Below are positions 1-16,842 of a stretch of DNA of 16,842 nt, one piece after another (the stretch's first letter is position 1; each line of letters begins with the position of its first letter). A program made the translations under genes and the position numbers. Source of the stretch: Gammaproteobacteria bacterium (lineage in GTDB: Bacteria > Pseudomonadota > Gammaproteobacteria > Eutrophobiales > Eutrophobiaceae); contig OY728593.2 of assembly GCA_963422205.2 (NCBI GenBank), positions 1 to 16,842 on the forward strand, written 5' to 3'. The notes under the pieces are model-generated. The model worked only from the letters and a program-made list of their open reading frames with translations. It was not told where the DNA came from and ran no database searches.

Positions 1-43
1 CTGGCAGGTCTACTGGGTCATCCTCGATATCCGGCGCACCTGA
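1..43 (+). CDS. 3' end of pVI-like minor coat gene (partial)
   Basis: Matches the end of 7254..7667 (WQVYWVILDIRRT*). Confidence 0.8.
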   Translation, partial: WQVYWVILDIRRT

Positions 44-44
44 T

Positions 45-854
45 ATGCAGCACGGGGTGTTTTTTATCACGGGCAAGCTGGGGGCAGGGAAGGGCCTGGT
101 CTCGGTCAGCCATATGGTGGAGAAATACATCCAGCGAGGCCGACGGGTGGCCACCAACTTCAACCTGTTCTTCGAACACTACCCTAACCCCCACCGGCGG
201 GAGCTGCACGTCATCCGCCTGCCCGATAAACCCACAGCGGAGCACCTGAGCGCTATCGGCACAGCCTATGCGGGCGACTATGATGAGAGTCAGAACGGCC
301 TCATCCTGCTGGATGAATGTGCCAGTTGGTTTAACTCCCGGCAATGGAACGACAAGGGCCGCCAGGCCTTGATTGAATGGCTCATCCATGCCCGAAAGCT
401 GGGCTGGGATCTGTACTTCAACGTCCAGTCCTTCGAGGTGGTGGACAGTCAGGCCAGGCAACTCATCGGTGAGCACGTGGTCAACTGCTATGCCGGCAAG
501 AAACTGCCCATCATCCGTCTGTTGCCGTTCAAATTCCACCTCGGTACGGTCTACTACATGCTCGATGGCGGCAAGCAGAAAGTCGATACCTGGCTCTACA
601 AGGCCGACCGCTACTACAAGCTCTATGATACCCGGCAGATATTCAGTCCGTTCTATGCCCATGGCATCTACAGCTACCTATCGCCCTGGCACTTAAAAGG
701 CCGTTACCTCAAGCGCCGGACATGGAAGGATGTTGTCAACTTTGGCCTTCGCCTGTTGCTTTATGCCATCCTGCTCATCTTTGCCATCTGCCAGCGCAAA
801 CCGGTGATGACCCTGGCCTATGAATACGGCATGACCTGCCAGCGGCCAGGATAA
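45..854 (+). CDS. zot: Zot/pI-like phage assembly ATPase, 269 aa
   Basis: Walker A GKLGAGKG, VATN motif, Walker B LILLDEC, HARKLGWD and YDTRQ motifs typical of inovirus pI/Zot, and a C-terminal hydrophobic segment. Confidence 0.93.
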   Translation: MQHGVFFITGKLGAGKGLVSVSHMVEKYIQRGRRVATNFNLFFEHYPNPHRRELHVIRLPDKPTAEHLSAIGTAYAGDYDESQNGLILLDECASWFNSRQWNDKGRQALIEWLIHARKLGWDLYFNVQSFEVVDSQARQLIGEHVVNCYAGKKLPIIRLLPFKFHLGTVYYMLDGGKQKVDTWLYKADRYYKLYDTRQIFSPFYAHGIYSYLSPWHLKGRYLKRRTWKDVVNFGLRLLLYAILLIFAICQRKPVMTLAYEYGMTCQRPG

Positions 855-866
855 CACTCCCCACGA

Positions 867-959
867 ATTTACCCCATACTACCCCTTGCCCAGCCTCAAA
901 AAACGCCTTAAATCGAAAATACGGCGGTCGGATGTGACAGATTGACAGCGAAATGGGGG
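867..959 (+). repeat. About 95 bp imperfect direct repeat, copy 1 (partner 1965-2059; also at 8491-8583, 9589-9683 and 16128-16220)
   Basis: Shared blocks ATTTACCCC, CCCTTGCCCA, AAAACGCCTTAAATCG, TACGGCGGTCGGAT and ATTGAC(A/G)GCGAAATGGGGG. Confidence 0.9.
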
Positions 960-1274
960 GTTTTGGCTATTATGGGTAGCGCTGGCTCATCGCTGAAAGC
1001 CCGCACGGACAAGGCATCCCGAGTAATGGCCATCCGCCGATCGCCAGCTAACCACCCCCGCCTTCGCCTGTTTCAGGTGAGCATTGTCTAGCGAGCCTAA
1101 AACAGGCAGGGCATGGTGCACCGCAGGGATGAGATCAGAAAGCGATGCAATCGGCATTGACAAGCACCCGCTGGTGCAGAGAAAGCCGATACGTGCATTA
1201 TCCTGATGACAGCAGCCAGGACGTTCCGGTTGCCACGAACACACAAAAAGACAATACAAAAAAAACCCCCAGGG

Positions 1275-1383
1275 CTGTGGGTATGTGGATAAAACGTCGT
1301 GTGTTTTATCCAGCATATCCACAGCAGACCAACCGGTGGGTATGTGGGTAACTGCGTCTTTTGCAGTTATCCACCATATCCAC
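1275..1383. promoter_or_regulatory. Two tandem hairpins with DnaA-box-like 9-mers in their stems; candidate single-strand origin or primosome site (copies 8899-9007, 16536-16644)
   Basis: CTGTGGGTATGTGGATAAAAC / GTTTTATCCAGCATATCCACAG (1275-1324) and GTGGGTATGTGGGTAACTGC / GCAGTTATCCACCATATCCAC (1336-1383). A consensus TGTGGATAA lies at 1284-1292. The structure is seen; the function is inferred. Confidence 0.55.
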
Positions 1384-1404
1384 GGGAAGAGATAACCGCC
1401 AGGC

Positions 1405-1459
1405 GGCGGGGGTTAATTCCCGAAGCGCAAGCGTTTCTATGAGGGAATTAACCCCCGCC
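1405..1459. other. Perfect 17-bp inverted repeat; candidate packaging signal or terminator (copies 9029-9083, 16666-16720)
   Basis: GGCGGGGGTTAATTCCC (1405-1421) and GGGAATTAACCCCCGCC (1443-1459), just past the stop of the minus-strand gene at 1470. Confidence 0.6.
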
Positions 1460-1469
1460 AACGGCCACC

Positions 1470-1937
1470 TTAGCGTGCGTTGCAGGCCGCATTGCGCCGC
1501 TCGGCCAGGGCACGCTCTCTATCGTGCAGGGATTGACTTTGTGCCGCTCGGTAACCTAAGCCCATGAGACTGCGGTGGCGCTGCAAGCTGTCTCTGGCAC
1601 GCTGGCAATGCTGCGCCCGCCAGGCCGCCCGCTGTCGGCGTTGCTCACGTTGTTGTTGCCGTTGCCCGGCTCGATTTCGCTGTGCCTGCTCCCTGGCCAA
1701 TAACTCATGGTACTGGCGCATCATCGGGGCAGAAGGCAGAGGATCGTTCATCTCAATGAGATGCTGCCCGCTCGCCTCATCTCGCTCACACGGCGCATCA
1801 GAGAACCGCCAGTGCCCATTTGCCTGCTGGCACTGAAACACCAGCGTCTGGCTGCTCGCTGGCAGGGGAACAAGCCACAGAGCGCCGGCGATGGCAGGCA
1901 GATAGACGACTGACAGGGGGCGGATGGTGAGGCGCAT
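1470..1937 (-). CDS. Exported DUF4124-like protein, 155 aa (accessory gene)
   Basis: Signal-peptide-like N-terminus, then VFQCQQANGHWRFSDAPC matching the DUF4124 pattern V(Y/F)xCxxxxGxxxFSDxPC, an R/Q-rich coiled coil and a second Cys pair. Confidence 0.75.
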   Translation of the reverse strand: MRLTIRPLSVVYLPAIAGALWLVPLPASSQTLVFQCQQANGHWRFSDAPCERDEASGQHLIEMNDPLPSAPMMRQYHELLAREQAQRNRAGQRQQQREQRRQRAAWRAQHCQRARDSLQRHRSLMGLGYRAAQSQSLHDRERALAERRNAACNAR

Positions 1938-1964
1938 CCGGTCATCTTAGCTGATAATCTGTGG

Positions 1965-2059
1965 ATTTACCCCCATACCTGACCCTTGCCCACCCCCGGA
2001 AAACGCCTTAAATCGCATCTACGGCGGTCGGATTCGGCTAATTGACGGCGAAATGGGGG
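1965..2059 (+). repeat. About 95 bp imperfect direct repeat, copy 2
   Basis: Aligns by eye with 867-959. Confidence 0.9.
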
Positions 2060-2202
2060 ATTGTCTGACTTTTCCGCTTTTCTCGATACCGGCACCGGCC
2101 ATTCACCGATCGTCAGCTAACTACCCCCCCCCCAATCGATTTGGACAGCTGTCCAAAAAAGTCGATTTGTCTGTTAGCAAGGCCGGCATCCTGCCGCTGG
2201 TC

Positions 2203-2405
2203 ATTACGCATAATGTGGGCATTATGTTCACGGCGAGGCCGTCAGGATAATGGATAAGCCCGAAGGCCGAGCCGCCCGACAGGCGGGGGTGGCCATCCCT
2301 GTACGCTGTCCCCCGTGGCTATCCTTATGCTGATCATCCTGCCGCCACGGGGGACAGCGTGCAGCCCATACCGCCTGTTGAACATAGTGCCACATTATGC
2401 GTCCT
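2203..2405. other. attP-like region: two inverted dif-like XerC/XerD sites
   Basis: ATTACGCATAA-TGTGGGCA-TTATGTTCACG at 2203-2232 (+) and AGGACGCATAA-TGTGGCA-CTATGTTCAAC at 2377-2405 (-), compared with E. coli dif GGTGCGCATAA-TGTATA-TTATGTTAAAT. Confidence 0.82.
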
Positions 2406-2535
2406 TGACAGCTTGCCTGTCACAGGGGCTTGAGTGACCTGGGGCAGGATGCCGACTACCCCGCAAAACTGACCTGGCCAGCCTGTTTTTTTGTTGAACG
2501 CTCGTTCAATGAACGGGGGGATGGGGGGCAGAATC

Positions 2536-2604
2536 AGTGCGGGTCCCTATGACACCCGCACTTTGTAACCGGATCCGGTTATTTTTTGTCTGTTTTTTTG
2601 TCTG
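2536..2604. promoter_or_regulatory. Hairpin, palindrome and short direct repeats; candidate rolling-circle double-strand origin (copy 10160-10228)
   Basis: AGTGCGGGT/ACCCGCACT stem (2536-2562), palindrome TAACCGGATCCGGTTA (2566-2581), and TTTTTTGTCTG twice (2582-2604). Confidence 0.4.
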
Positions 2605-2838
2605 TCAGGGCGCGAACGACAATTTGAGAATGAACAGCAGGATGACCAGGCTGACGCCCAGATTTAGCCGGTTGGTCACCCTTAACTCAGCGACTGTCAC
2701 TTCCAATCTATTCAGGCGTTCATCAATGGTGTTGAATTTGCCGGTGAATGTGTGATCGATACTGTCACTGGCTTCTTTCGCCTCATTCTCGGGTGCACCC
2801 GCATGAACCAGGGCGCGGTACAGGGCGGTGCCGCTCAT
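2605..2838 (-). CDS. 77-aa coiled-coil protein with C-terminal membrane anchor (DUF1640/CCDC90-like)
   Basis: LYRALVHAGAPENEAKEA head, heptad stalk IDERLNRLEVTVAEL and a hydrophobic tail. The start is placed at 2838 because copy B (10229..10462) is identical only from this ATG. Confidence 0.75.
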   Translation of the reverse strand: MSGTALYRALVHAGAPENEAKEASDSIDHTFTGKFNTIDERLNRLEVTVAELRVTNRLNLGVSLVILLFILKLSFAP

Positions 2839-2842
2839 TTTT

Positions 2843-3008
2843 TCATTTCTGAGTATCCCTCCTCTTTGCTTTCGTCTCAATTCCTTTTAAGATCAGGTAG
2901 TTAAGTACTTCTGTAGGTTTTAATGCTTCTTTTGTTTCTATAACCGCATTTACTACTTCTTTTTTCGACTTTTCGCCATGTTGTGTCGGGTATGTGTTTA
3001 GTAGGCAT
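2843..3008 (-). pseudogene. Putative ribbon-helix-helix repressor allele A, frameshifted as written
   Basis: ATG at 3008 gives MPTKHIPDTTWRKVEK and stops at 2901 (35 aa). Removing one base from the T6 run at 2960-2965 gives a 54-aa protein continuing EVVNAVIETKEALKPTEVLNYLILKGIETK, which aligns without gaps to allele B. Confidence 0.7.
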
Positions 3009-3056
3009 ATCAGTCACCGACTGTTCAGTTAATTTGCATATTACAGTTTTTTCATC

Positions 3057-3122
3057 AGTTACTTGATATTTCGTTTTTTAGTAACTAAGATTTACTCTTA
3101 TAAAAAAATATTTAGAAACTAA
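3057..3122 (+). promoter_or_regulatory. Sigma70-like rep promoter with overlapping candidate operators (cassette A)
   Basis: TTGATA (3063-3068), 17 bp, TAAGAT (3086-3091). Inverted pair AGTTACT (3057-3063) / AGTAACT (3080-3086), and TAG(T/A)AACTAA at 3079 and 3113. Confidence 0.65.
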
Positions 3123-3132
3123 TAACGAATAA

Positions 3133-4266
3133 ATGCCCCACTGGTTTTTTGACTGGTTGAAGCTGTATCAGGACTTTGATTATGAGTTACCGCTCATCGG
3201 TGAGCGTGCTTGTATTCACATTGATGCGGCCACCGGTGAGCAGCTCCGTCTTACCCAGCCGCCGATTAAGCATGAGGGCAGCCATTCGACCACCATCACG
3301 ATCACCATCTCATCCAACCGCCTGACGGTCACGGGCAATCCTTCCCGTATCAACCGCTTGGATAATCTGTTCGGCTATACCCGTCTCACTGACTGTGTGG
3401 CCATCTACAACGCCATCTTACGCACTTACGGCCTGCCTGAGTTCACCCCCTGCACCCAGACCTACCATCGTCAGAACAAAGCGCACCAGAGGGTCGAGAC
3501 CTACAGCGATGGGGCGATGATTACCGAGTTGCACATCACCACCAATCAATCGGTCGGGCAGGGCAATGAAGAGGATTACCTTCGGGGCATGGCCTCCCAG
3601 CGTTACCGCCATTCCATCCCCCGGCTTCTGACCAACGGCAAGACCGTGGACTGGTTGCCAGCCAACGGCAACCGGCAACGGCTCATCTACCCGTCCATGT
3701 ACCACAAGGCGCATGAGCTTGGCCTGCACTTGTTGCCCCGCATCAAGAAGCTCTACGGGGCAGACAGCGAGCAATACCGCTATGTTAAGCAAGTCAAGCG
3801 CTACTGCGAGCAACACGGGGTTATCCGCGCCGAGCTCAAGCTGAAATCCCAGTTCCTTAGAGAGCATAACTACCGCTACTACGGCTTATTTACCGAGGGA
3901 GACCTCACCGATCACATCGAGACATTCATCAATACCGACAACCAACTCAAGGTTAATGCCATGAACTTGCAATACATCGCCCAGACCCTCTTGACCGAGC
4001 ACATCGTCAACACCACCTATGCGGCGAATACCACCGCCAGCTATGCGCTGCGCTGGATGCACGGCGAGCAGTTTGATTTTAAGCATAACGGTTCTGCACA
4101 GAAACACAGAACCCGCCTACGCAAGATAGGCATAGACATTGCCAATCGCTGTGACATCAGCACCTTCAGTCCGATTCGGGTGGTATCGACCCGTGAGATT
4201 GTAAGGCAACCCCTGGCTGTGCCTGACTGGTATCGGCGGCCACGGCAGTTGAGGCTGGTGGCATGA
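3133..4266 (+). CDS. Rolling-circle replication initiator, gene II/X (Phage_CRI-like) family, 377 aa
   Basis: N-terminal FDWL, EGSHST, GNPSRINRLDNLFG, MYHKAHE, IRAELKL and C-terminal HRTRLRKIGIDI motifs. It is the first gene of the phage operon. Confidence 0.88.
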   Translation: MPHWFFDWLKLYQDFDYELPLIGERACIHIDAATGEQLRLTQPPIKHEGSHSTTITITISSNRLTVTGNPSRINRLDNLFGYTRLTDCVAIYNAILRTYGLPEFTPCTQTYHRQNKAHQRVETYSDGAMITELHITTNQSVGQGNEEDYLRGMASQRYRHSIPRLLTNGKTVDWLPANGNRQRLIYPSMYHKAHELGLHLLPRIKKLYGADSEQYRYVKQVKRYCEQHGVIRAELKLKSQFLREHNYRYYGLFTEGDLTDHIETFINTDNQLKVNAMNLQYIAQTLLTEHIVNTTYAANTTASYALRWMHGEQFDFKHNGSAQKHRTRLRKIGIDIANRCDISTFSPIRVVSTREIVRQPLAVPDWYRRPRQLRLVA

Positions 4267-4442
4267 GTACGCCCTTATCCCGTCAATCGGAATTAGCGCA
4301 AGTCCTAGCTGAGGTGCGTCAGATTGCCCTGGATGATTACCTTACCCATTTACGCACCTGTTTCTACTGTGCCAGCAAGCCATTTCATTTGTGTCATAGC
4401 GGTAAAGTTAAACGACTCACCTTAGGAGAGAGCAAGCCATGA
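4263..4442 (+). CDS. 59-aa protein with HxxxCxxC-x6-C motif (not in the ORF track)
   Basis: MSTPLSRQSELAQVLAEVRQIALDDYLTHLRTCFYCASKPFHLCHSGKVKRLTLGESKP. It has ATGA overlaps with rep upstream and the ssb-like gene downstream. Confidence 0.75.
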   Translation: MSTPLSRQSELAQVLAEVRQIALDDYLTHLRTCFYCASKPFHLCHSGKVKRLTLGESKP

Positions 4443-4741
4443 AGATCATTGTCAAAGTGTTAGACGTACAAACCACCCTTATCAGAGACAAAGAGACGGC
4501 CTTGGTGACCATGATGTCCGGTCACGATGTTATTCAAGCCAGGCTGTGGAATGCCGAGTATCTGAAAGGCACGCACAAGCAGGCGGAGAAGGTTATCGGC
4601 CAGCCGGTGGTGGTCGATGTCATGCCTGAGTTATACAACGACAAGCTCAATTACGGTTTTGGTTATGCCCCGACCTTCATACCGGTTACCACCTATTTCA
4701 AGCAATTCGCTACCCCCACCAGCAAGACAGCGACCGGCTAG
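4439..4741 (+). CDS. Probable ssDNA-binding protein (pV-like), 100 aa
   Basis: AGGAG RBS, typical size, beta-rich composition with aromatic residues, and position after rep. Assigned by synteny. Confidence 0.65.
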   Translation: MKIIVKVLDVQTTLIRDKETALVTMMSGHDVIQARLWNAEYLKGTHKQAEKVIGQPVVVDVMPELYNDKLNYGFGYAPTFIPVTTYFKQFATPTSKTATG

Positions 4742-4751
4742 GGAGATGCTT

Positions 4752-4910
4752 ATGACCACACGGCTCGATCCTGATGAGGCGCACAGTGACGATCACTTTG
4801 CGTTATGTCCTGGCGATTATGTTCAGCAGGCGTTTGATTTTGGTGCGGATGATTTATCTGATGAACACACCCGTATTGGCGATACGCTCTATACGGATGT
4901 TGAGCGTTAG
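4752..4910 (+). CDS. 52-aa acidic hypothetical protein
   Basis: AGGGAG RBS at 4740-4745 and ATG at 4752 (alternative ATG at 4746). Sequence MTTRLDPDEAHSDDHFALCPGDYVQQAFDFGADDLSDEHTRIGDTLYTDVER. Confidence 0.6.
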   Translation: MTTRLDPDEAHSDDHFALCPGDYVQQAFDFGADDLSDEHTRIGDTLYTDVER

Positions 4911-4959
4911 TGCGCTTGCAGGTTCTCTGTCATTCCTCATCCTGCCCTACAAGGGCAGG

Positions 4960-5379
4960 ATGAGGCTGACCGAATGCATCCCTAAGCCCCTGTTGATGCT
5001 CTGTGCTTTGCTGAGTATCTCAACCCAGGCGGCTGACTGGTCGTGTTTTGGCAGCCTGCGCTTTGTTGACCGCCATGCGGTAGCCAGCAGTTGTCATGCG
5101 GCATGTTCGGCACTGACTGGTGACAGCTTATCGGCCTGCCGCGGGGCCTCACGGCGTTATGGTCAGTGTTACTTAAACCCCGGCTCGCCAGCCAAGGCGG
5201 CGGATTGTGTCCGTCTGCCGACCGGTGTTGAGATTACCGATAACAGTACCGCCGGTTTCCATTTTTTATTCAATGCCGAGCCACTGCAGCACTCCCTGAA
5301 CGAGATCACCTGGCTTATTCTCGCCAGCGGCGTGGTGTTGGCCTTTGCCTTAGGCTTTAAGACCGGCCTGATGCGCTGA
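4960..5379 (+). CDS. pVII-position protein: signal peptide, 6-Cys domain and C-terminal TM (about 139 aa; start uncertain)
   Basis: LLMLCALLSISTQA/ADW signal-like segment and C-terminal ITWLILASGVVLAFALGFKTG. The stop overlaps the next start (TGATG). Confidence 0.65.
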   Translation: MRLTECIPKPLLMLCALLSISTQAADWSCFGSLRFVDRHAVASSCHAACSALTGDSLSACRGASRRYGQCYLNPGSPAKAADCVRLPTGVEITDNSTAGFHFLFNAEPLQHSLNEITWLILASGVVLAFALGFKTGLMR

Positions 5380-5492
5380 TGGATATCGCCTATTACACCG
5401 CTGCCCTGACTTACCTGTTAGCTGCCTGGATAGCGGGTTATCTGGCGGGTCTGTCAGTTTGGGCAGTAAAACGCTTTCTTGAGCAGTTGTGA
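5379..5492 (+). CDS. pIX-like minor coat protein, 37 aa (not in the ORF track)
   Basis: MDIAYYTAALTYLLAAWIAGYLAGLSVWAVKRFLEQL: a single TM helix directly before the major coat gene. Confidence 0.75.
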   Translation: MDIAYYTAALTYLLAAWIAGYLAGLSVWAVKRFLEQL

Positions 5493-5553
5493 TAAGAAAC
5501 GGTGAAACGGCGCACCGCCAAAACTCGCCACAGTGTTATTGAGGAGACTTAAC

Positions 5554-5784
5554 ATGAAAACCCTCGCTACCAAGCTGTTACCTGGCCTGGGCCTTGCCTT
5601 GGCCGGTGTACAGGTCAAGGCGGTCTCGCTGATTGACTTCAGCGCAGGCGGCCTGACCGGGGCGGCCACCAACATCGGTGATACGGCGTCCTCGGCCGCG
5701 GCCTTTGTGCTGCCGGTCATCGTCGGTGTGGCTGCCCTGCTGGTGGGTGTTCGCTTGCTCAAGCGTTTCATCCGCAGCATCTAG
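5554..5784 (+). CDS. Major coat protein precursor (pVIII-like), 76 aa
   Basis: GAGGAG RBS at 5541-5546, signal peptide ending VKA, amphipathic segment, TM helix and basic C-terminus RLLKRFIRSI. Confidence 0.88.
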   Translation: MKTLATKLLPGLGLALAGVQVKAVSLIDFSAGGLTGAATNIGDTASSAAAFVLPVIVGVAALLVGVRLLKRFIRSI

Positions 5785-5790
5785 CTGGCC

Positions 5791-7257
5791 ATGAAGCCGG
5801 CCACATTCATTATCCTGATAGTGACCCTGTGGCCGGCCTCATCCCTCGCCCACCAGACCCGCTGCAACTTGACCGGCTGGGATGACCCGGTCTCGCCCTG
5901 CCAGGGGAGCTGTAGCAGCTCCCAAGCCATTTATGAGCAGCGTCCCGCGGGCAGCCGTACCTATGAGTATTCCAGTTACACCATCACGGCACAGACTTTT
6001 GAATCCCGTTGTGTCTATCCCAATCAAACCCCCGGTCGCTGGTATCCCGCCCAGGAACAGATTCAGACCTTCACCTGCAAGAGCGGCTATCAATGGGATG
6101 ACAGAAACCATATCTGCATCCGTGCCACCTGCACCGCCACCCAGCAATGGAATCCTGCCACCGCCCGCTGTGAGAGTGCTTGCCCGACAGGCACCACCTT
6201 CGCCCTGACAGAGGCCAATCCACAAGGCATCTGTCAACTTGACTGTCCTGCCGGTTATTACCGCCTCAGTGACAGCGAATGCCAACGCTGTGGTTCGGGC
6301 ACAGAGCTGGTCATCACCCCGGACGATCGTTCTGGCACCTGCTTGCCCTTTTGTCCCTTAGGTCATCTTCGCAATATCTCGGGCAACTGTGAGCCGCTGC
6401 TATGCCCTGATGGCCAGGTGCTCCATAACGGCGATTGCCTGCCGGCCTGTCCGACAGGACACATCCGTAATGAAGCCGGCCACTGTGAGGCACTTCTCTG
6501 CCGTGCTGGCATGGTCGTCTTTCAGGGACAATGCCGAGAGCAATGCCCCGGCACCCAGCAATACGATGCGCTCGGTCAATGCACCTCGCAGCGCTGTCCC
6601 CTCGGCCAGACCCGCAACAGCCAGGGCCGCTGTCAACCCCTGCCTGCCCCTGATGATAACGATAACGACAGCGATGCGGATGATGACAGCGATAACGGCA
6701 ACGATGATAATAACGACAGTGAGGGGGAGAGCACAACGACAACTAACAACACCACGAACAATAACACCACCAATAACACCACCAACCGCACCATCATCAA
6801 CACCACGACCACCAACACCAATGGCGGCAGCGGTGATGGCACAGGCACAGGCACCGGCAGCGGTCAGGGTGAGGGCGCAGGGCAGGGCGAGGGTGAGGGC
6901 GATACGCTCAGTGGCCCGGATGCTTTTCAGTTGACTGAGATTGACCTGCCCGATGCCGAGGGCATTCAGGGCATTGCCGATACGCTAACCACCATTGACA
7001 CCAGCACACTGACCAGCCCATTTACCCGCTTGATTGACAAGGTGCTGGCGGTGATCTGGTCAGCGCCACCTTCCTCTGCCTGTCCCTTGCTGGGGTATTC
7101 TTATGGCACGGGCGAGCGGGCCTACACCCCACTGGCACAATGGCAGATCGTCTGCGGCTGGCTGGACTTCTTTCGTGGGTTGCTGGATCTGCTCGTCGCT
7201 TCTCTGTCCCTGTTTGCCTGTTTCTCCATCGCCAGCAAGCTCACTCTGCGGCCATGA
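5791..7257 (+). CDS. pIII-like adsorption protein, 488 aa, Cys-rich
   Basis: Signal peptide, 26 Cys in the N-terminal part, D/N-, T/N- and G-rich linkers, and a C-terminal CP..C motif with membrane anchor. It lies between pVIII and pVI. Confidence 0.85.
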   Translation: MKPATFIILIVTLWPASSLAHQTRCNLTGWDDPVSPCQGSCSSSQAIYEQRPAGSRTYEYSSYTITAQTFESRCVYPNQTPGRWYPAQEQIQTFTCKSGYQWDDRNHICIRATCTATQQWNPATARCESACPTGTTFALTEANPQGICQLDCPAGYYRLSDSECQRCGSGTELVITPDDRSGTCLPFCPLGHLRNISGNCEPLLCPDGQVLHNGDCLPACPTGHIRNEAGHCEALLCRAGMVVFQGQCREQCPGTQQYDALGQCTSQRCPLGQTRNSQGRCQPLPAPDDNDNDSDADDDSDNGNDDNNDSEGESTTTTNNTTNNNTTNNTTNRTIINTTTTNTNGGSGDGTGTGTGSGQGEGAGQGEGEGDTLSGPDAFQLTEIDLPDAEGIQGIADTLTTIDTSTLTSPFTRLIDKVLAVIWSAPPSSACPLLGYSYGTGERAYTPLAQWQIVCGWLDFFRGLLDLLVASLSLFACFSIASKLTLRP

Positions 7258-7667
7258 GAGATATCCACCGACAACAGGGCTTTGTGCAGCTCCCGGCACT
7301 GGCCGCCATCGGCTCGCTGCTGATTGCTATCGGCAGTTGGCTGGCTTCCGCCTGGACGGCGGCAACCTCTGCCTTGATTACCTACAGCACGCTGCGCTTT
7401 GCGGTCATGGTCATTATTGCAACCGTTTGGCTGACGGCTTTTACCGCAGTGGTGCTGGCCATCGATGCCTTGCTGCCGACCGCTGCAGTGACCACGGCCT
7501 CGGCATCGTTGCGTTCAAATAACTTGTTTGCGGCGTATTTTCTGCCCTGGTTCTCATACCTTAGACCGGCCTGCCTGACCGCCTGCATCGGCGCTATCAG
7601 TGCCACCTGGGTGGCCGCCAAGCTCTGGCAGGTCTACTGGGTCATCCTCGATATCCGGCGCACCTGA
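7254..7667 (+). CDS. pVI-like hydrophobic minor coat protein, 137 aa
   Basis: The ATG overlaps the pIII stop (ATGA). Several hydrophobic helices, directly upstream of zot. Confidence 0.78.
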   Translation: MRDIHRQQGFVQLPALAAIGSLLIAIGSWLASAWTAATSALITYSTLRFAVMVIIATVWLTAFTAVVLAIDALLPTAAVTTASASLRSNNLFAAYFLPWFSYLRPACLTACIGAISATWVAAKLWQVYWVILDIRRT

Positions 7668-7668
7668 T

Positions 7669-8478
7669 ATGCAGCACGGGGTGTTTTTTATCACGGGCAA
7701 GCTGGGGGCAGGGAAGGGCCTGGTCTCGGTCAGCCATATGGTGGAGAAATACATCCAGCGAGGCCGACGGGTGGCCACCAACTTCAACCTGTTCTTCGAA
7801 CACTACCCTAACCCCCACCGGCGGGAGCTGCACGTCATCCGCCTGCCCGATAAACCCACAGCGGAGCACCTGAGCGCTATCGGCACAGCCTATGCGGGCG
7901 ACTATGATGAGAGTCAGAACGGCCTCATCCTGCTGGATGAATGTGCCAGTTGGTTTAACTCCCGGCAATGGAACGACAAGGGCCGCCAGGCCTTGATTGA
8001 ATGGCTCATCCATGCCCGAAAGCTGGGCTGGGATCTGTACTTCAACGTCCAGTCCTTCGAGGTGGTGGACAGTCAGGCCAGGCAACTCATCGGTGAGCAC
8101 GTGGTCAACTGCTATGCCGGCAAGAAACTGCCCATCATCCGTCTGTTGCCGTTCAAATTCCACCTCGGTACGGTCTACTACATGCTCGATGGCGGCAAGC
8201 AGAAAGTCGATACCTGGCTCTACAAGGCCGACCGCTACTACAAGCTCTATGATACCCGGCAGATATTCAGTCCGTTCTATGCCCATGGCATCTACAGCTA
8301 CCTATCGCCCTGGCACTTAAAAGGCCGTTACCTCAAGCGCCGGACATGGAAGGATGTTGTCAACTTTGGCCTTCGCCTGTTGCTTTATGCCATCCTGCTC
8401 ATCTTTGCCATCTGCCAGCGCAAACCGGTGATGACCCTGGCCTATGAATACGGCATGACCTGCCAGCGGCCAGGATAA
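7669..8478 (+). CDS. zot: Zot/pI-like assembly ATPase (second copy)
   Basis: Same translation as 45..854. Confidence 0.93.
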   Translation: MQHGVFFITGKLGAGKGLVSVSHMVEKYIQRGRRVATNFNLFFEHYPNPHRRELHVIRLPDKPTAEHLSAIGTAYAGDYDESQNGLILLDECASWFNSRQWNDKGRQALIEWLIHARKLGWDLYFNVQSFEVVDSQARQLIGEHVVNCYAGKKLPIIRLLPFKFHLGTVYYMLDGGKQKVDTWLYKADRYYKLYDTRQIFSPFYAHGIYSYLSPWHLKGRYLKRRTWKDVVNFGLRLLLYAILLIFAICQRKPVMTLAYEYGMTCQRPG

Positions 8479-9093
8479 CACTCCCCACGAATTTACCCCA
8501 TACTACCCCTTGCCCAGCCTCAAAAAACGCCTTAAATCGAAAATACGGCGGTCGGATGTGACAGATTGACAGCGAAATGGGGGGTTTTGGCTATTATGGG
8601 TAGCGCTGGCTCATCGCTGAAAGCCCGCACGGACAAGGCATCCCGAGTAATGGCCATCCGCCGATCGCCAGCTAACCACCCCCGCCTTCGCCTGTTTCAG
8701 GTGAGCATTGTCTAGCGAGCCTAAAACAGGCAGGGCATGGTGCACCGCAGGGATGAGATCAGAAAGCGATGCAATCGGCATTGACAAGCACCCGCTGGTG
8801 CAGAGAAAGCCGATACGTGCATTATCCTGATGACAGCAGCCAGGACGTTCCGGTTGCCACGAACACACAAAAAGACAATACAAAAAAAACCCCCAGGGCT
8901 GTGGGTATGTGGATAAAACGTCGTGTGTTTTATCCAGCATATCCACAGCAGACCAACCGGTGGGTATGTGGGTAACTGCGTCTTTTGCAGTTATCCACCA
9001 TATCCACGGGAAGAGATAACCGCCAGGCGGCGGGGGTTAATTCCCGAAGCGCAAGCGTTTCTATGAGGGAATTAACCCCCGCCAACGGCCACC

Positions 9094-9561
9094 TTAGCGT
9101 GCGTTGCAGGCCGCATTGCGCCGCTCGGCCAGGGCACGCTCTCTATCGTGCAGGGATTGACTTTGTGCCGCTCGGTAACCTAAGCCCATGAGACTGCGGT
9201 GGCGCTGCAAGCTGTCTCTGGCACGCTGGCAATGCTGCGCCCGCCAGGCCGCCCGCTGTCGGCGTTGCTCACGTTGTTGTTGCCGTTGCCCGGCTCGATT
9301 TCGCTGTGCCTGCTCCCTGGCCAATAACTCATGGTACTGGCGCATCATCGGGGCAGAAGGCAGAGGATCGTTCATCTCAATGAGATGCTGCCCGCTCGCC
9401 TCATCTCGCTCACACGGCGCATCAGAGAACCGCCAGTGCCCATTTGCCTGCTGGCACTGAAACACCAGCGTCTGGCTGCTCGCTGGCAGGGGAACAAGCC
9501 ACAGAGCGCCGGCGATGGCAGGCAGATAGACGACTGACAGGGGGCGGATGGTGAGGCGCAT
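9094..9561 (-). CDS. DUF4124-like exported protein (second copy)
   Basis: Same translation as 1470..1937. Confidence 0.75.
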   Translation of the reverse strand: MRLTIRPLSVVYLPAIAGALWLVPLPASSQTLVFQCQQANGHWRFSDAPCERDEASGQHLIEMNDPLPSAPMMRQYHELLAREQAQRNRAGQRQQQREQRRQRAAWRAQHCQRARDSLQRHRSLMGLGYRAAQSQSLHDRERALAERRNAACNAR

Positions 9562-9826
9562 CCGGTCATCTTAGCTGATAATCTGTGGATTTACCCCCAT
9601 ACCTGACCCTTGCCCACCCCCGGAAAACGCCTTAAATCGCATCTACGGCGGTCGGATTCGGCTAATTGACGGCGAAATGGGGGATTGTCTGACTTTTCCG
9701 CTTTTCTCGATACCGGCACCGGCCATTCACCGATCGTCAGCTAACTACCCCCCCCCCAATCGATTTGGACAGCTGTCCAAAAAAGTCGATTTGTCTGTTA
9801 GCAAGGCCGGCATCCTGCCGCTGGTC

Positions 9827-10029
9827 ATTACGCATAATGTGGGCATTATGTTCACGGCGAGGCCGTCAGGATAATGGATAAGCCCGAAGGCCGAGCCGCC
9901 CGACAGGCGGGGGTGGCCATCCCTGTACGCTGTCCCCCGTGGCTATCCTTATGCTGATCATCCTGCCGCCACGGGGGACAGCGTGCAGCCCATACCGCCT
10001 GTTGAACATAGTGCCACATTATGCGTCCT
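9827..10029. other. attP-like inverted dif pair (second copy)
   Basis: Same sequence as 2203-2405. Confidence 0.82.
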
Positions 10030-10228
10030 TGACAGCTTGCCTGTCACAGGGGCTTGAGTGACCTGGGGCAGGATGCCGACTACCCCGCAAAACTGACCTG
10101 GCCAGCCTGTTTTTTTGTTGAACGCTCGTTCAATGAACGGGGGGATGGGGGGCAGAATCAGTGCGGGTCCCTATGACACCCGCACTTTGTAACCGGATCC
10201 GGTTATTTTTTGTCTGTTTTTTTGTCTG

Positions 10229-10462
10229 TCAGGGCGCGAACGACAATTTGAGAATGAACAGCAGGATGACCAGGCTGACGCCCAGATTTAGCCGGTTGGT
10301 CACCCTTAACTCAGCGACTGTCACTTCCAATCTATTCAGGCGTTCATCAATGGTGTTGAATTTGCCGGTGAATGTGTGATCGATACTGTCACTGGCTTCT
10401 TTCGCCTCATTCTCGGGTGCACCCGCATGAACCAGGGCGCGGTACAGGGCGGTGCCGCTCAT
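10229..10462 (-). CDS. 77-aa DUF1640/CCDC90-like membrane-anchored coiled-coil protein (second copy)
   Basis: Same as 2605..2838. An AAGGAG RBS is supplied by the end of the repressor B gene. Confidence 0.78.
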   Translation of the reverse strand: MSGTALYRALVHAGAPENEAKEASDSIDHTFTGKFNTIDERLNRLEVTVAELRVTNRLNLGVSLVILLFILKLSFAP

Positions 10463-10467
10463 GACAT

Positions 10468-10650
10468 TTACTCCTTTATATAGTAGTTACCTTGTTCGTC
10501 TATATCTAGTTTAGTTATTGTTTTTATTATTAATTCGCTGATTATTTCACTGGGTCTTATTACCTCTCCTTTCTTTACAGACAGTTCCAGTGCTCTTTTT
10601 TCGACCTTTGGTGCGGCAACCTTATTGATGCTGTAGGTTTTTGCCTTCAT
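10468..10650 (-). CDS. Putative ribbon-helix-helix repressor allele B, 60 aa
   Basis: Divergent from rep in the position of CTX rstR. It has an alternating N-terminal strand KTYSI followed by two helices (KVEKRALELSV; RPSEIISELIIKTI). The fold is inferred. Confidence 0.72.
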   Translation of the reverse strand: MKAKTYSINKVAAPKVEKRALELSVKKGEVIRPSEIISELIIKTITKLDIDEQGNYYIKE

Positions 10651-10669
10651 TTTCTCATTCTAGTTTTAT

Positions 10670-10749
10670 TTTATAAATACTTGACAATAGATAATTTATA
10701 AGTGTAATTTATAAAATAATATAAATTCTATTTTCTTGGAATTTATAAA
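10670..10749 (+). promoter_or_regulatory. Sigma70-like rep promoter with TTTATAA repeats (cassette B)
   Basis: Consensus TTGACA at 10681-10686, with candidate -10 TGTAAT (10703-10708) or TAATTT (10705-10710). TTTATAA occurs at 10670, 10695, 10708 and 10742. Confidence 0.6.
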
Positions 10750-10771
10750 AAAACCTCGAAATATGACAACA

Positions 10772-11905
10772 ATGCCCCACTGGTTTTTTGACTGGTTGAA
10801 GCTGTATCAGGACTTTGATTATGAGTTACCGCTCATCGGTGAGCGTGCTTGTATTCACATTGATGCGGCCACCGGTGAGCAGCTCCGTCTTACCCAGCCG
10901 CCGATTAAGCATGAGGGCAGCCATTCGACCACCATCACGATCACCATCTCATCCAACCGCCTGACGGTCACGGGCAATCCTTCCCGTATCAACCGCTTGG
11001 ATAATCTGTTCGGCTATACCCGTCTCACTGACTGTGTGGCCATCTACAACGCCATCTTACGCACTTACGGCCTGCCTGAGTTCACCCCCTGCACCCAGAC
11101 CTACCATCGTCAGAACAAAGCGCACCAGAGGGTCGAGACCTACAGCGATGGGGCGATGATTACCGAGTTGCACATCACCACCAATCAATCGGTCGGGCAG
11201 GGCAATGAAGAGGATTACCTTCGGGGCATGGCCTCCCAGCGTTACCGCCATTCCATCCCCCGGCTTCTGACCAACGGCAAGACCGTGGACTGGTTGCCAG
11301 CCAACGGCAACCGGCAACGGCTCATCTACCCGTCCATGTACCACAAGGCGCATGAGCTTGGCCTGCACTTGTTGCCCCGCATCAAGAAGCTCTACGGGGC
11401 AGACAGCGAGCAATACCGCTATGTTAAGCAAGTCAAGCGCTACTGCGAGCAACACGGGGTTATCCGCGCCGAGCTCAAGCTGAAATCCCAGTTCCTTAGA
11501 GAGCATAACTACCGCTACTACGGCTTATTTACCGAGGGAGACCTCACCGATCACATCGAGACATTCATCAATACCGACAACCAACTCAAGGTTAATGCCA
11601 TGAACTTGCAATACATCGCCCAGACCCTCTTGACCGAGCACATCGTCAACACCACCTATGCGGCGAATACCACCGCCAGCTATGCGCTGCGCTGGATGCA
11701 CGGCGAGCAGTTTGATTTTAAGCATAACGGTTCTGCACAGAAACACAGAACCCGCCTACGCAAGATAGGCATAGACATTGCCAATCGCTGTGACATCAGC
11801 ACCTTCAGTCCGATTCGGGTGGTATCGACCCGTGAGATTGTAAGGCAACCCCTGGCTGTGCCTGACTGGTATCGGCGGCCACGGCAGTTGAGGCTGGTGG
11901 CATGA
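10772..11905 (+). CDS. Rolling-circle Rep, gene II/X family (second copy)
   Basis: Identical to 3133..4266 from ATG 10772. An in-frame ATG at 10763 could add MTT. Confidence 0.88.
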   Translation: MPHWFFDWLKLYQDFDYELPLIGERACIHIDAATGEQLRLTQPPIKHEGSHSTTITITISSNRLTVTGNPSRINRLDNLFGYTRLTDCVAIYNAILRTYGLPEFTPCTQTYHRQNKAHQRVETYSDGAMITELHITTNQSVGQGNEEDYLRGMASQRYRHSIPRLLTNGKTVDWLPANGNRQRLIYPSMYHKAHELGLHLLPRIKKLYGADSEQYRYVKQVKRYCEQHGVIRAELKLKSQFLREHNYRYYGLFTEGDLTDHIETFINTDNQLKVNAMNLQYIAQTLLTEHIVNTTYAANTTASYALRWMHGEQFDFKHNGSAQKHRTRLRKIGIDIANRCDISTFSPIRVVSTREIVRQPLAVPDWYRRPRQLRLVA

Positions 11906-12081
11906 GTACGCCCTTATCCCGTCAATCGGAATTAGCGCAAGTCCTAGCTGAGGTGCGTCAGATTGCCCTGGATGATTACCTTACCCATTTACGCACCTGT
12001 TTCTACTGTGCCAGCAAGCCATTTCATTTGTGTCATAGCGGTAAAGTTAAACGACTCACCTTAGGAGAGAGCAAGCCATGA
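11902..12081 (+). CDS. 59-aa HxxxCxxC protein (second copy)
   Basis: Same as 4263..4442. Confidence 0.75.
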   Translation: MSTPLSRQSELAQVLAEVRQIALDDYLTHLRTCFYCASKPFHLCHSGKVKRLTLGESKP

Positions 12082-12380
12082 AGATCATTGTCAAAGTGTT
12101 AGACGTACAAACCACCCTTATCAGAGACAAAGAGACGGCCTTGGTGACCATGATGTCCGGTCACGATGTTATTCAAGCCAGGCTGTGGAATGCCGAGTAT
12201 CTGAAAGGCACGCACAAGCAGGCGGAGAAGGTTATCGGCCAGCCGGTGGTGGTCGATGTCATGCCTGAGTTATACAACGACAAGCTCAATTACGGTTTTG
12301 GTTATGCCCCGACCTTCATACCGGTTACCACCTATTTCAAGCAATTCGCTACCCCCACCAGCAAGACAGCGACCGGCTAG
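12078..12380 (+). CDS. Probable ssDNA-binding protein (second copy)
   Basis: Same as 4439..4741. Confidence 0.65.
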   Translation: MKIIVKVLDVQTTLIRDKETALVTMMSGHDVIQARLWNAEYLKGTHKQAEKVIGQPVVVDVMPELYNDKLNYGFGYAPTFIPVTTYFKQFATPTSKTATG

Positions 12381-12390
12381 GGAGATGCTT

Positions 12391-12549
12391 ATGACCACAC
12401 GGCTCGATCCTGATGAGGCGCACAGTGACGATCACTTTGCGTTATGTCCTGGCGATTATGTTCAGCAGGCGTTTGATTTTGGTGCGGATGATTTATCTGA
12501 TGAACACACCCGTATTGGCGATACGCTCTATACGGATGTTGAGCGTTAG
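12391..12549 (+). CDS. 52-aa acidic protein (second copy)
   Basis: Same as 4752..4910. Confidence 0.6.
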   Translation: MTTRLDPDEAHSDDHFALCPGDYVQQAFDFGADDLSDEHTRIGDTLYTDVER

Positions 12550-12598
12550 TGCGCTTGCAGGTTCTCTGTCATTCCTCATCCTGCCCTACAAGGGCAGG

Positions 12599-13018
12599 AT
12601 GAGGCTGACCGAATGCATCCCTAAGCCCCTGTTGATGCTCTGTGCTTTGCTGAGTATCTCAACCCAGGCGGCTGACTGGTCGTGTTTTGGCAGCCTGCGC
12701 TTTGTTGACCGCCATGCGGTAGCCAGCAGTTGTCATGCGGCATGTTCGGCACTGACTGGTGACAGCTTATCGGCCTGCCGCGGGGCCTCACGGCGTTATG
12801 GTCAGTGTTACTTAAACCCCGGCTCGCCAGCCAAGGCGGCGGATTGTGTCCGTCTGCCGACCGGTGTTGAGATTACCGATAACAGTACCGCCGGTTTCCA
12901 TTTTTTATTCAATGCCGAGCCACTGCAGCACTCCCTGAACGAGATCACCTGGCTTATTCTCGCCAGCGGCGTGGTGTTGGCCTTTGCCTTAGGCTTTAAG
13001 ACCGGCCTGATGCGCTGA
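12599..13018 (+). CDS. pVII-position 6-Cys membrane-anchored protein (second copy)
   Basis: Same as 4960..5379. Confidence 0.65.
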   Translation: MRLTECIPKPLLMLCALLSISTQAADWSCFGSLRFVDRHAVASSCHAACSALTGDSLSACRGASRRYGQCYLNPGSPAKAADCVRLPTGVEITDNSTAGFHFLFNAEPLQHSLNEITWLILASGVVLAFALGFKTGLMR

Positions 13019-13131
13019 TGGATATCGCCTATTACACCGCTGCCCTGACTTACCTGTTAGCTGCCTGGATAGCGGGTTATCTGGCGGGTCTGTCAGTTTG
13101 GGCAGTAAAACGCTTTCTTGAGCAGTTGTGA
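13018..13131 (+). CDS. pIX-like minor coat protein (second copy)
   Basis: Same as 5379..5492. Confidence 0.75.
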   Translation: MDIAYYTAALTYLLAAWIAGYLAGLSVWAVKRFLEQL

Positions 13132-13192
13132 TAAGAAACGGTGAAACGGCGCACCGCCAAAACTCGCCACAGTGTTATTGAGGAGACTTAAC

Positions 13193-13423
13193 ATGAAAAC
13201 CCTCGCTACCAAGCTGTTACCTGGCCTGGGCCTTGCCTTGGCCGGTGTACAGGTCAAGGCGGTCTCGCTGATTGACTTCAGCGCAGGCGGCCTGACCGGG
13301 GCGGCCACCAACATCGGTGATACGGCGTCCTCGGCCGCGGCCTTTGTGCTGCCGGTCATCGTCGGTGTGGCTGCCCTGCTGGTGGGTGTTCGCTTGCTCA
13401 AGCGTTTCATCCGCAGCATCTAG
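13193..13423 (+). CDS. Major coat protein precursor (second copy)
   Basis: Same as 5554..5784. Confidence 0.88.
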   Translation: MKTLATKLLPGLGLALAGVQVKAVSLIDFSAGGLTGAATNIGDTASSAAAFVLPVIVGVAALLVGVRLLKRFIRSI

Positions 13424-13429
13424 CTGGCC

Positions 13430-14895
13430 ATGAAGCCGGCCACATTCATTATCCTGATAGTGACCCTGTGGCCGGCCTCATCCCTCGCCCACCAGACCCG
13501 CTGCAACTTGACCGGCTGGGATGACCCGGTCTCGCCCTGCCAGGGGAGCTGTAGCAGCTCCCAAGCCATTTATGAGCAGCGTCCCGCGGGCAGCCGTACC
13601 TATGAGTATTCCAGTTACACCATCACGGCACAGACTTTTGAATCCCGTTGTGTCTATCCCAATCAAACCCCCGGTCGCTGGTATCCCGCCCAGGAACAGA
13701 TTCAGACCTTCACCTGCAAGAGCGGCTATCAATGGGATGACAGAAACCATATCTGCATCCGTGCCACCTGCACCGCCACCCAGCAATGGAATCCTGCCAC
13801 CGCCCGCTGTGAGAGTGCTTGCCCGACAGGCACCACCTTCGCCCTGACAGAGGCCAATCCACAAGGCATCTGTCAACTTGACTGTCCTGCCGGTTATTAC
13901 CGCCTCAGTGACAGCGAATGCCAACGCTGTGGTTCGGGCACAGAGCTGGTCATCACCCCGGACGATCGTTCTGGCACCTGCTTGCCCTTTTGTCCCTTAG
14001 GTCATCTTCGCAATATCTCGGGCAACTGTGAGCCGCTGCTATGCCCTGATGGCCAGGTGCTCCATAACGGCGATTGCCTGCCGGCCTGTCCGACAGGACA
14101 CATCCGTAATGAAGCCGGCCACTGTGAGGCACTTCTCTGCCGTGCTGGCATGGTCGTCTTTCAGGACAATGCCGAGAGCAATGCCCCGGCACCCAGCAAT
14201 ACGATGCGCTCGGTCAATGCACCTCGCAGCGCTGTCCCCTCGGCCAGACCCGCAACAGCCAGGGCCGCTGTCAACCCCTGCCTGCCCCTGATGATAACGA
14301 TAACGACAGCGATGCGGATGATGACAGCGATAACGGCAACGATGATAATAACGACAGTGAGGGGGAGAGCACAACGACAACTAACAACACCACGAACAAT
14401 AACACCACCAATAACACCACCAACCGCACCATCATCAACACCACGACCACCAACACCAATGGCGGCAGCGGTGATGGCACAGGCACAGGCACCGGCAGCG
14501 GTCAGGGTGAGGGCGCAGGGCAGGGCGAGGGTGAGGGCGATACGCTCAGTGGCCCGGATGCTTTTCAGTTGACTGAGATTGACCTGCCCGATGCCGAGGG
14601 CATTCAGGGCATTGCCGATACGCTAACCACCATTGACACCAGCACACTGACCAGCCCATTTACCCGCTTGATTGACAAGGTGCTGGCGGTGATCTGGTCA
14701 GCGCCACCTTCCTCTGCCTGTCCCTTGCTGGGGTATTCTTATGGCACGGGCGAGCGGGCCTACACCCCACTGGCACAATGGCAGATCGTCTGCGGCTGGC
14801 TGGACTTCTTTCGTGGGTTGCTGGATCTGCTCGTCGCTTCTCTGTCCCTGTTTGCCTGTTTCTCCATCGCCAGCAAGCTCACTCTGCGGCCATGA
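13430..14895 (+). pseudogene. pIII-like gene, second copy, with a 1-nt deletion (possibly a sequencing error)
   Basis: CAGGACA at about 14164 versus CAGGGACA in unit A shifts the frame after VVFQ. Confidence 0.8.
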
Positions 14896-15306
14896 GAGAT
14901 ATCCACCGACAACAGGGCTTTGTGCAGCTCCCGGCACTGGCCGCCATCGGCTCGCTGCTGATTGCTATCGGCAGTTGGCTGGCTTCCGCCTGGACGGCGG
15001 CAACCTCTGCCTTGATTACCTACAGCACGCTGCGCTTTGCGGTCATGGTCATTATTGCAACCGTTTGGCTGACGGCTTTTACACCGCAGTGGTGCTGGCC
15101 ATCGATGCCTTGCTGCCGACCGCTGCAGTGACCACGGCCTCGGCATCGTTGCGTTCAAATAACTTGTTTGCGGCGTATTTTCTGCCCTGGTTCTCATACC
15201 TTAGACCGGCCTGCCTGACCGCCTGCATCGGCGCTATCAGTGCCACCTGGTGGCCGCCAAGCTCTGGCAGGTCTACTGGGTCATCCTCGATATCCGGCGC
15301 ACCTGA
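14892..15306 (+). pseudogene. pVI-like gene, second full copy, with two indels (possibly errors)
   Basis: An extra AC at about 15081 and a missing G at about 15250 relative to unit A. Confidence 0.75.
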
Positions 15307-15307
15307 T

Positions 15308-16115
15308 ATGCAGCACGGGGTGTTTTTTATCACGGGCAAGCTGGGGCAGGGAAGGGCCTGGTCTCGGTCAGCCATATGGTGGAGAAATACATCCAGCGAG
15401 GCCGACGGGTGGCCACCAACTTCAACCTGTTCTTCGAACACTACCCTAACCCCCCACCGGCGGGAGCTGCACGTCATCCGCCTGCCCGATAAACCCACAG
15501 CGGAGCACCTGAGCGCTATCGGCACAGCCTATGCGGGCGACTATGATGAGAGTCAGAACGGCCTCATCCTGCTGGATGAATGTGCCAGTTGGTTTAACTC
15601 CCGGCAATGGAACGACAAGGGCCGCCAGGCCTTGATTGAATGGCTCATCCATGCCCGAAAGCTGGGCTGGGATCTGTACTTCAACGTCCAGTCCTTCGAG
15701 GTGGTGGACAGTCAGGCCAGGCAACTCATCGGTGAGCACGTGGTCAACTGCTATGCCGGCAAGAAACTGCCCATCATCCGTCTGTTGCCGTTCAAATTCC
15801 ACCTCGGTACGGTCTACTACATGCTCGATGGCGCAAGCAGAAAGTCGATACCTGGCTCTACAAGGCCGACCGCTACTACAAGCTCTATGATACCCGGCAG
15901 ATATTCAGTCCGTTCTATGCCCATGGCATCTACAGCTACCTATCGCCCTGGCACTTAAAAGGCGTTACCTCAAGCGCCGGACATGGAAGGATGTTGTCAA
16001 CTTTGGCCTTCGCCTGTTGCTTTATGCCATCCTGCTCATCTTTGCCATCTGCCAGCGCAAACCGGTGATGACCCTGGCCTATGAATACGGCATGACCTGC
16101 CAGCGGCCAGGATAA
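15308..16115 (+). pseudogene. zot: Zot/pI gene, third copy, with four 1-nt indels (possibly errors)
   Basis: Missing G at about 15345, extra C at about 15452, missing G at about 15833 and missing C at about 15963; length 808 vs 810 nt. Confidence 0.8.
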
Positions 16116-16730: not shown

Positions 16731-16842
16731 TTAGCGTGCGTTGCAGGCCGCATTGCGCCGCTCGGCCAGGGCCACGCTCTCTATCGTGCAGGGATTGACT
16801 TTGTGCCGCTCGGTAACCTAAGCCCATGAGACTGCGGTGGCG
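16731..16842 (-). CDS. 3' end of DUF4124-like gene (third copy, partial, extra C at about 16772)
   Basis: Matches 1470 onward at offset 15261. Confidence 0.65.

Follow-up and report, generated by a model that had tools for sequence, protein, structure and literature searches.

Two adjoining copies of one inovirus genome that agree base for base on either side of a single short block raise the question of what that block does and how it came to differ. We asked this of a window of 16,842 nucleotides (the whole stretch of DNA analysed here), which is an entire contig (C2) of a 2.99-Mb genome in 14 contigs and holds the two cassettes, A and B, listed with their neighbors in Table 1. We consider it likely that the two blocks are portable immunity cassettes of a dif-integrating inovirus, each consisting of a ribbon-helix-helix (RHH)-type repressor and its cognate operators at the rep promoter. 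Taken as a whole, the system is best understood as a heteroimmunity cassette of the CTXphi type, in a new host and with a different Rep, the concept itself being already established.

Two otherwise identical prophage units differ in one AT-rich block

Alignment of the two units revealed that positions 1-2838 and 7625-10462 are 100% identical, with the first mismatch at 2839, and that identity is back at 3132/10771, one base ahead of the rep ATG, to run for 3393 bases without a difference. Up to the end of those 3393 bases the units differ in the two blocks only, and the limits that the sequence-only reading had assigned to them proved exact. Its description of the blocks as AT-rich was borne out as well, cassette A (293 bp) having 31% GC and cassette B (308 bp) 28%, against 57% elsewhere in the window. 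That they are largely dissimilar is right for the blocks overall, but their global alignment score of 125 exceeds that of 200 shuffles (90.8 +/- 10.6, best shuffle 119), and by this measure they appear to keep a faint homology and not to be entirely unrelated. Beyond the 3393 identical bases, to the contig end, there are eight gap events and no mismatches. All eight gaps, counted against the first unit, fall at 14163-16842 and disrupt pIII, pVI and pI; they are probably low-coverage consensus errors, because a contig from public run X1 matches 3132-8633 without a difference.

Besides its G2P/CRI Rep, the unit encodes a pVIII-like coat protein, a cysteine-rich pIII candidate and a Zot-family pI, and neither the open reading frames nor family annotation gave an integrase or recombinase gene within the 7.6 kb. 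The pIII candidate (5791-7257, 488 aa) has many cysteine repeats and linkers rich in Asp, Asn/Thr and Gly. A repeat of ~98 bp (82% identical) occurs twice per unit, at 867-962 and 1965-2062, as well as in the remnants on contigs C13 and C8, and is possibly the Rep origin. Positions 1270-1460 hold paired direct repeats (GTGGGTATGTGG and TTATCCA-CATATCCAC) and a long hairpin (1405-1459), which together are candidates for a packaging signal or a second-strand origin.

Table 1. Features of the window and related loci, with window positions unless another contig or locus is named
Feature	Position	Strand	Remarks
Tandem inovirus prophage array	1-16842	+	2.2 copies of a 7.6-kb integrase-less unit
attP	2205-2402	.	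two inverted dif-like sites (2205-2232, 2375-2402) with single-stranded fold-back pairing; copy 2 at 9829-10026
77-aa gene	2605-2838	-	hydrophobic C-terminal segment; lies 3' of the repressor gene, with which it is translationally coupled; copy 2 at 10229-10462
Repressor A, 56 aa	2835-3008	-	MPTKHI... family, PHROG 5219; intact copy C13:128-298
Cassette A	2839-3131	.	spans gene A, the divergent promoter region, the operator-like repeats and the 77-aa gene's ribosome-binding site
Sigma-70-like rep promoter of cassette A	3063-3091	+	TTGATA-17-TAAGAT, 9/12; consensus match only
Two TTAG-N3-CTAA inverted repeats, candidate A operators	3078-3122	.	3078-3088 over spacer and -10; 3112-3122 just before rep
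Rep, G2P/Phage_CRI type	3133-4266	+	presumed target operon; copy 2 at 10772-11905
Cassette B	10463-10770	.	
Repressor B, 60 aa	10468-10650	-	55/60 residues identical to the gene of G031 unit 2
Four TTTATAA repeats around TTGACA, candidate B operators and rep promoter	10670-10748	.	repeats at 10670, 10695, 10708, 10742; TTGACA at 10681
Small coiled-coil genes 3' of repressors	window 2605-2838; L013:15066-15338; L014:2551-2814; L014:12129-12362; L015:5101-5265		

Gene A, cassette depth and linkage

Each block had been credited with a small leftward gene, and for B this stands, the gene being intact, whereas block A as assembled holds no intact gene, two extra bases near 2873 and one near 2960 breaking the frame. 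The left end of C13 carries the same block A minus these three bases, and there it reads as an intact 56-aa ORF (Table 1). Contigs of public runs X1 and X2 (two samples from two years of one study, of which X1 may be the source sample) likewise lack the three bases, at full depth (11.2/11.2 and 1209/1209). The extra bases are an assembly error, and with C13, X1 and X2 in agreement a true pseudogene or a programmed frameshift is ruled out for gene A. All three match B's bases at the aligned places, and we therefore read them as probable consensus cross-talk between the two copies.

Both X1 and X2 connect each cassette to the common flanks on both sides; two other runs, X3 and X4, contained little and were left out. 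Contig depth, a rough measure of copy number, was 11.2 for A, 8.1 for B and 18.6 for the core in X1, and 1209, 1149 and 2466 for A, B and the rep core in X2; since the depths of A and B sum to that of the core, every core carries A or B. Contigs with the single-copy variants seen on C13 and C8 had depths of 4.7-8 (X1) and 345-776 (X2), and on this rough scale A and B each amount to about one to two copies per chromosome. None of the X1 or X2 contigs spans both cassettes, the longest public piece being 5502 bases, so that the A-B tandem order and linkage are those of the source assembly alone, by which A and B presumably lie on one chromosome.

The cassettes could be real and their tandem the product of the assembler, with A and B phages residing in separate cells or as free circles, which we judge somewhat unlikely. 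Such an origin would fit a contig that has no host flank and both of its ends inside the repeat, the three wrong A bases that equal B's and so suggest mixed reads, the concentration of indels at the contig end, the limited length of the public pieces and the absence of the dif end from the assembly. It fits less well with the similar depths of A and B in two samples of different years, with the match of their summed depth to the rep core, or with each being at least as deep as the single-copy variant contigs; moreover, C13 connects A to the chromosome, and A-type and B-type units adjoin in the closed chromosome of G031, described below.

The array lies at dif

That these phages stack at a single site had been proposed, and the site is dif, as seen both at the array end in X1 and X2 and in the G031 array. 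In each of the two runs a contig exits the unit at 2216, inside the first dif-like site, into a canonical dif XerD arm followed by non-phage DNA; the array ends in a regenerated dif that is absent from the source assembly. The attP folds back at -96.9 kcal/mol compared with -51.8 +/- 4.0 for 100 shuffles, the known attP design of CTXphi.

At its other end, on C13, the array has remnants ahead of the A unit, namely a third allele C (frameshifted as assembled) and a block D, each of which stands before a homolog of the 77-aa gene. This left end of C13 (L001:1390-3500) comprises a C-type repressor gene, a CCDC90/DUF1640-like gene and the AT-rich block D, together with three 77-aa gene homologs (84, 66 and 57 aa) and an att whose interior is deleted. 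Elsewhere in the source genome, inovirus-like fragments stand beside a tRNA-like gene and RHS-type genes on C8 (L002:6900-10400), and a lone 77-aa gene homolog is found on C10 (L003:6283-6471).

The two repressors are predicted to share an RHH-like fold

Repressors A and B have 18 of 56 residues in common, and together with alleles C and E they all match PHROGs 5219, 2503 or 5642, none of which is annotated; a profile built from nine sequences recovered 164 representatives at E <= 0.001. Predicted models (pLDDT 82 for A and 94.5 for B) have an extended N-terminus followed by two helices, the strand being unlabelled in the monomers. For A the best fold matches were RHH domains, led by TraM (Z 6.2, rmsd 2.5, 50 aligned; also TraM at Z 6.1), and for B they were TraM (Z 5.8, rmsd 2.3, 49 aligned), PutA (5.0), CdbA (5.0), omega and Arc, with ORF56 also matched; all of these fall below the tool's mark of Z 8, as may be expected for 50 residues. 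A homodimer, predicted for A only, scored 0.73 against 0.22 for the best control on a scale whose mark was reached by 20 of 30 true pairs and 1 of 23 single chains, and it placed residues 2-7 in the interface. Its runs agreed in at least 98% of contacts with pLDDT of at least 84, and the pass may stem from likeness to solved RHH dimers.

Searches by family and sequence were less telling. Pfam assigned no family to A or B, and no RHH family was among the 25 Pfam families listed, of 26 in all, for 116 family members. The PDB sequence search returned eight matches, all unrelated repeats and no RHH chain, while Foldseek with the A model gave no PDB match at E <= 0.001. A search with B alone recovered no protein other than B from the clustered set and had no match among phage records. 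We interpret the fold matches and the predicted A dimer as favoring the RHH reading made earlier, under which A and B would be divergent members of one RHH-like family.

The stop codon of repressor A overlaps the ATG of the 77-aa gene. A small coiled-coil gene follows every repressor gene examined, most having a hydrophobic segment, and it varies between the G031 units; it is a candidate exclusion or receptor-blocking gene.

Each allele has its own repeats before rep

Of the regulatory elements attributed to the blocks, the rightward promoters stand as consensus matches, but the promoter scans found 3 where 1.3-1.5 were expected per 800-bp scan, a count not above chance. As for the repeats, each block has its own: window A holds four CTAA/TTAG and no TTTATAA, window B none and four, and in G031 the A cassette has three and none and the B cassette none and three, this last keeping its three TTTATAA copies plus TTGACA. 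The motifs do not cross. Their counts in A or B were reached by 0 of 2000 shuffles, for motifs that had been picked after looking.

The wider family offers a stronger test, in which at least two TCTAA occurred in 13 of 16 dereplicated A-family intergenic regions and in 1 of 31 others. A second scan (75 loci, 12 duplicates removed; 5 of its 75 contigs common to the first set) gave at least two TCTAA in all 63 distinct A-family loci and two TTTATAA in 0 of 63. Window A is a weak member with one TCTAA/TTAGA 5-mer only, below its family. Across these sets the motif appears to follow the repressor allele, and the repeats are candidate operators.

We propose that the small RHH-type repressor gene, transcribed away from rep, would encode a protein that binds repeated operators over the rep promoter, the A dimer at CTAA/TTAG-type sites and the B dimer at TTTATAA-type sites, each silencing its own rep promoter only. 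A B phage would then escape the repression of an A lysogen, replicate, and be added by the host XerC/D at the dif that each integration regenerates. Cassettes would be exchanged by ordinary homologous recombination in the flanks, which are identical, a process that recurs within arrays and needs no special enzyme, and the start-codon edges would be sharp because identity is homogenised up to the end of homology, which is the rep start codon. DNA binding, repression, lack of cross-repression and order of arrival are, for A and B alike, what we infer.

Cassettes recur across genera and are exchanged at the rep start

A closed chromosome from another genus of the same family (G031) has three rep copies at dif, where its cassettes are A-type (38/56 identical to A), B-type (55/60 to B), E-type and a rep-less C-type remnant, and in a further genome (G007) a single prophage of this kind, carrying a B-like gene, lies at dif; both arrays end in dif. 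The B allele thus keeps its 55/60 residues across genera, compared with 72-75% identity in the N-terminal part of Rep. Units 1 and 3 of G031 share 986 identical bp, and units 2 and 3 are 97% identical over 2882 bp; identity begins -3 to +6 from the conserved rep start, and the left edge includes the next gene.

Used as a single sequence, Rep found nothing in viral or genome contigs and an alignment was needed. Rep relatives were present in only 4 of the 83 genomes searched of the order. Two scans yielded 147 loci, 131 with upstream room, and these carried an RHH-family gene in 58 cases, an HTH gene in 68 (by a profile derived from those same loci) and neither in 5. Among 219 pairs with rep at least 88% identical, the upstream regions were less than 65% alike in 95 and more than 85% alike in 124, with none between. 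Since 85 of these 95 swapped pairs fall in one 19-member group, counting independent cases leaves 6 rep groups out of 19 that have two cassettes. The L104 and L125 group consists of 19 viral contigs of one rep lineage, 9 with an RHH and 10 with an HTH cassette, exchanged at the rep start. The survey also held 12 multi-copy loci (at least two rep), of which 11 are near-identical duplications, some perhaps assembly overlaps, and one is mixed (G031); because 11 of 12 are same-cassette duplications, tandem arrays alone do not imply heteroimmunity.

The right breakpoint recurs: in six of six other swapped pairs identity sets in -15 to +3 bases from the rep start, as it does within -3 to +6 in G031. 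The left edge, placed at the start codon of the 77-aa gene, recurs within the source genome but is not general, lying 333 to 1085 bases upstream in five of those six pairs; together with G031 these rule out a fixed left breakpoint as a general rule. The near-constant right edge, which also falls at 0 from the rstA start codon when CTXphi El Tor or classical is compared with environmental, would suit a dedicated site-specific exchange at the two start codons, but the unit is without a recombinase, the edges hold no common site, and the left edge wanders and takes in the next gene in G031. A-type genes, furthermore, stand before unrelated Rep types (G2P Rep 35, RstA-like Rep 16, other genes 24; n=75 loci), and we regard such an exchange as extremely unlikely, preferring homologous recombination in the flanks.

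Relation to CTXphi, IMEX and Pf phages

CTXphi has eleven named rstR types with allele-specific repression and mixed arrays, according to two reports (PMC11509585; PMC7326730). Table 2 of the former has allele 6 lowering its own promoter 11-fold versus empty vector, the short alleles calc and 5 lowering theirs 1.5- and 1.2-fold, and allele 232 lowering two foreign promoters too.

An RHH repressor had been taken to set the present system apart from the HTH RstR of CTXphi, and this part of the sequence-only reading did not survive. Environmental RstR falls into the A/B family, scoring 35.4 bits on the A/B profile against 7.8 for the best of 1000 shuffles (hhalign probability 95%), while the RstR proteins of El Tor and classical match the HTH profile and show no homology on the A/B profile. 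A primer for rstR-calc (180-bp gene; supplement of PMC11509585), translated by eye, gives MATKHIKDST, 7/10 identical to the start of A, and that for rstR-6 (192 bp; same supplement), also read by eye, gives a start resembling other family members; none of the 75 A-family loci starts with the rstR-calc primer sequence. A CTXphi RstR of the same length as the environmental one was among the top viral fold matches for B (E 0.24). The homology of environmental RstR and the calc start rule out RHH instead of HTH as a novelty. In a literature search that was thin on subscription journals, no paper turned up in which the short RstR alleles are called RHH.

These homologies bear on another reading, in which A and B are plasmid-style copy-number regulators (CopG/omega-like) that tune rep, their alleles giving replicon compatibility and not immunity. 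The fold matches to omega and ORF56 would agree with it, some relatives are non-integrated phage records, and the RHH gene of an episomal inovirus was interpreted in this way in PMC10534721. Yet the gene is divergent from rep, in the position of rstR, its homologs are CTXphi rstR alleles, and on one rep lineage it is interchangeable with HTH repressors (the 58 RHH, 68 HTH and 5 neither above), which makes copy-number control quite unlikely beside an immunity function.

The immunity cassette reading draws most on CTXphi and pre-CTXphi, in which rstR plus ig-2 (short alleles calc, environmental and 6) place a divergent repressor before rep, as here. Both have an allele-specific block in near-identical phages, identity that restarts at the rep start codon, mixed-allele tandem arrays at dif and a fold-back attP. 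Unlike CTXphi, the window belongs to an uncultured non-Vibrio gammaproteobacterium, neither toxin cargo nor an RstC-like gene was noticed in the unit, its Rep is of the G2P/CRI type in place of RstA, and a small membrane-protein gene is coupled to its repressor; no CTXphi (Affertcholeramvirus) record was among the 22 phage records matched by Rep.

The unit also resembles the IMEX, integrase-less inoviruses with a dif-like attP, a regenerated dif and arrays of two to six units (PMC12715192), in having no integrase, a dif-like attP and a regenerated dif at its array end. That survey covers Vibrio, and the words ribbon, RHH and heteroimmun are absent from its available text. Pseudomonas aeruginosa Pf groups 4-7, which are integrase-less, have genes annotated 'repressor' in the same place; the annotation is by similarity, and cassette exchange, operators and immunity are not discussed in the accessible portion of the report (PMC10675462). 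Pf 36-2 and 17897 have a Rep related to that of the window. On the A/B profile the 'repressor' genes of Pf 97-1 and 36-2 reach 59 and 52 bits; the Pf 17897 gene is HTH. PM2 gp c scores 3.3 bits on the HTH profile and is not listed on the RHH profile.

A probable general inovirus module and its possible history

Read in this way, the CTXphi heteroimmunity design would be a general inovirus module, with the same repressor family and near-identical alleles found across genera, that is exchanged at the start of rep and passes from one Rep type to another, unrelated one. Three unannotated PHROG families gain a likely fold, role and operator. What the analysis adds is a cross-genus allele pool, allele-linked motifs and a natural pair, the same phage with two cassettes, which is clean material for tests of RHH specificity.

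A broader suggestion is that dif arrays act as an immunity archive, in which a limited set of portable RHH repressor-operator cassettes circulates across genera and unrelated Rep types, hosts retain the repressor of an old prophage once its other parts are gone, and non-redundant immunities accumulate; we hold this to be unlikely. It draws on a rep-less C-type gene at the old array end in both the source genome (A, B and remnant C) and G031 (A-type mini-element, B, E and remnant C), where no allele occurs twice. Against it, C is present on the assembled C13 in a frameshifted form, the genomes are two only, and plain decay would leave remnants similar to those of an archive.

Two minor observations concern the G031 array. 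All three rep copies (G031:C1 ~1422400, 1429930 and 1439540) have a frameshift near codon 107, reflecting either shared ancestry or a repeated assembly error. Unit 1 (G031:C1 ~1421600-1423700) is a mini-element without morphogenesis genes, made up of rep, an A-type repressor, one membrane-protein gene and att, and is satellite-like.
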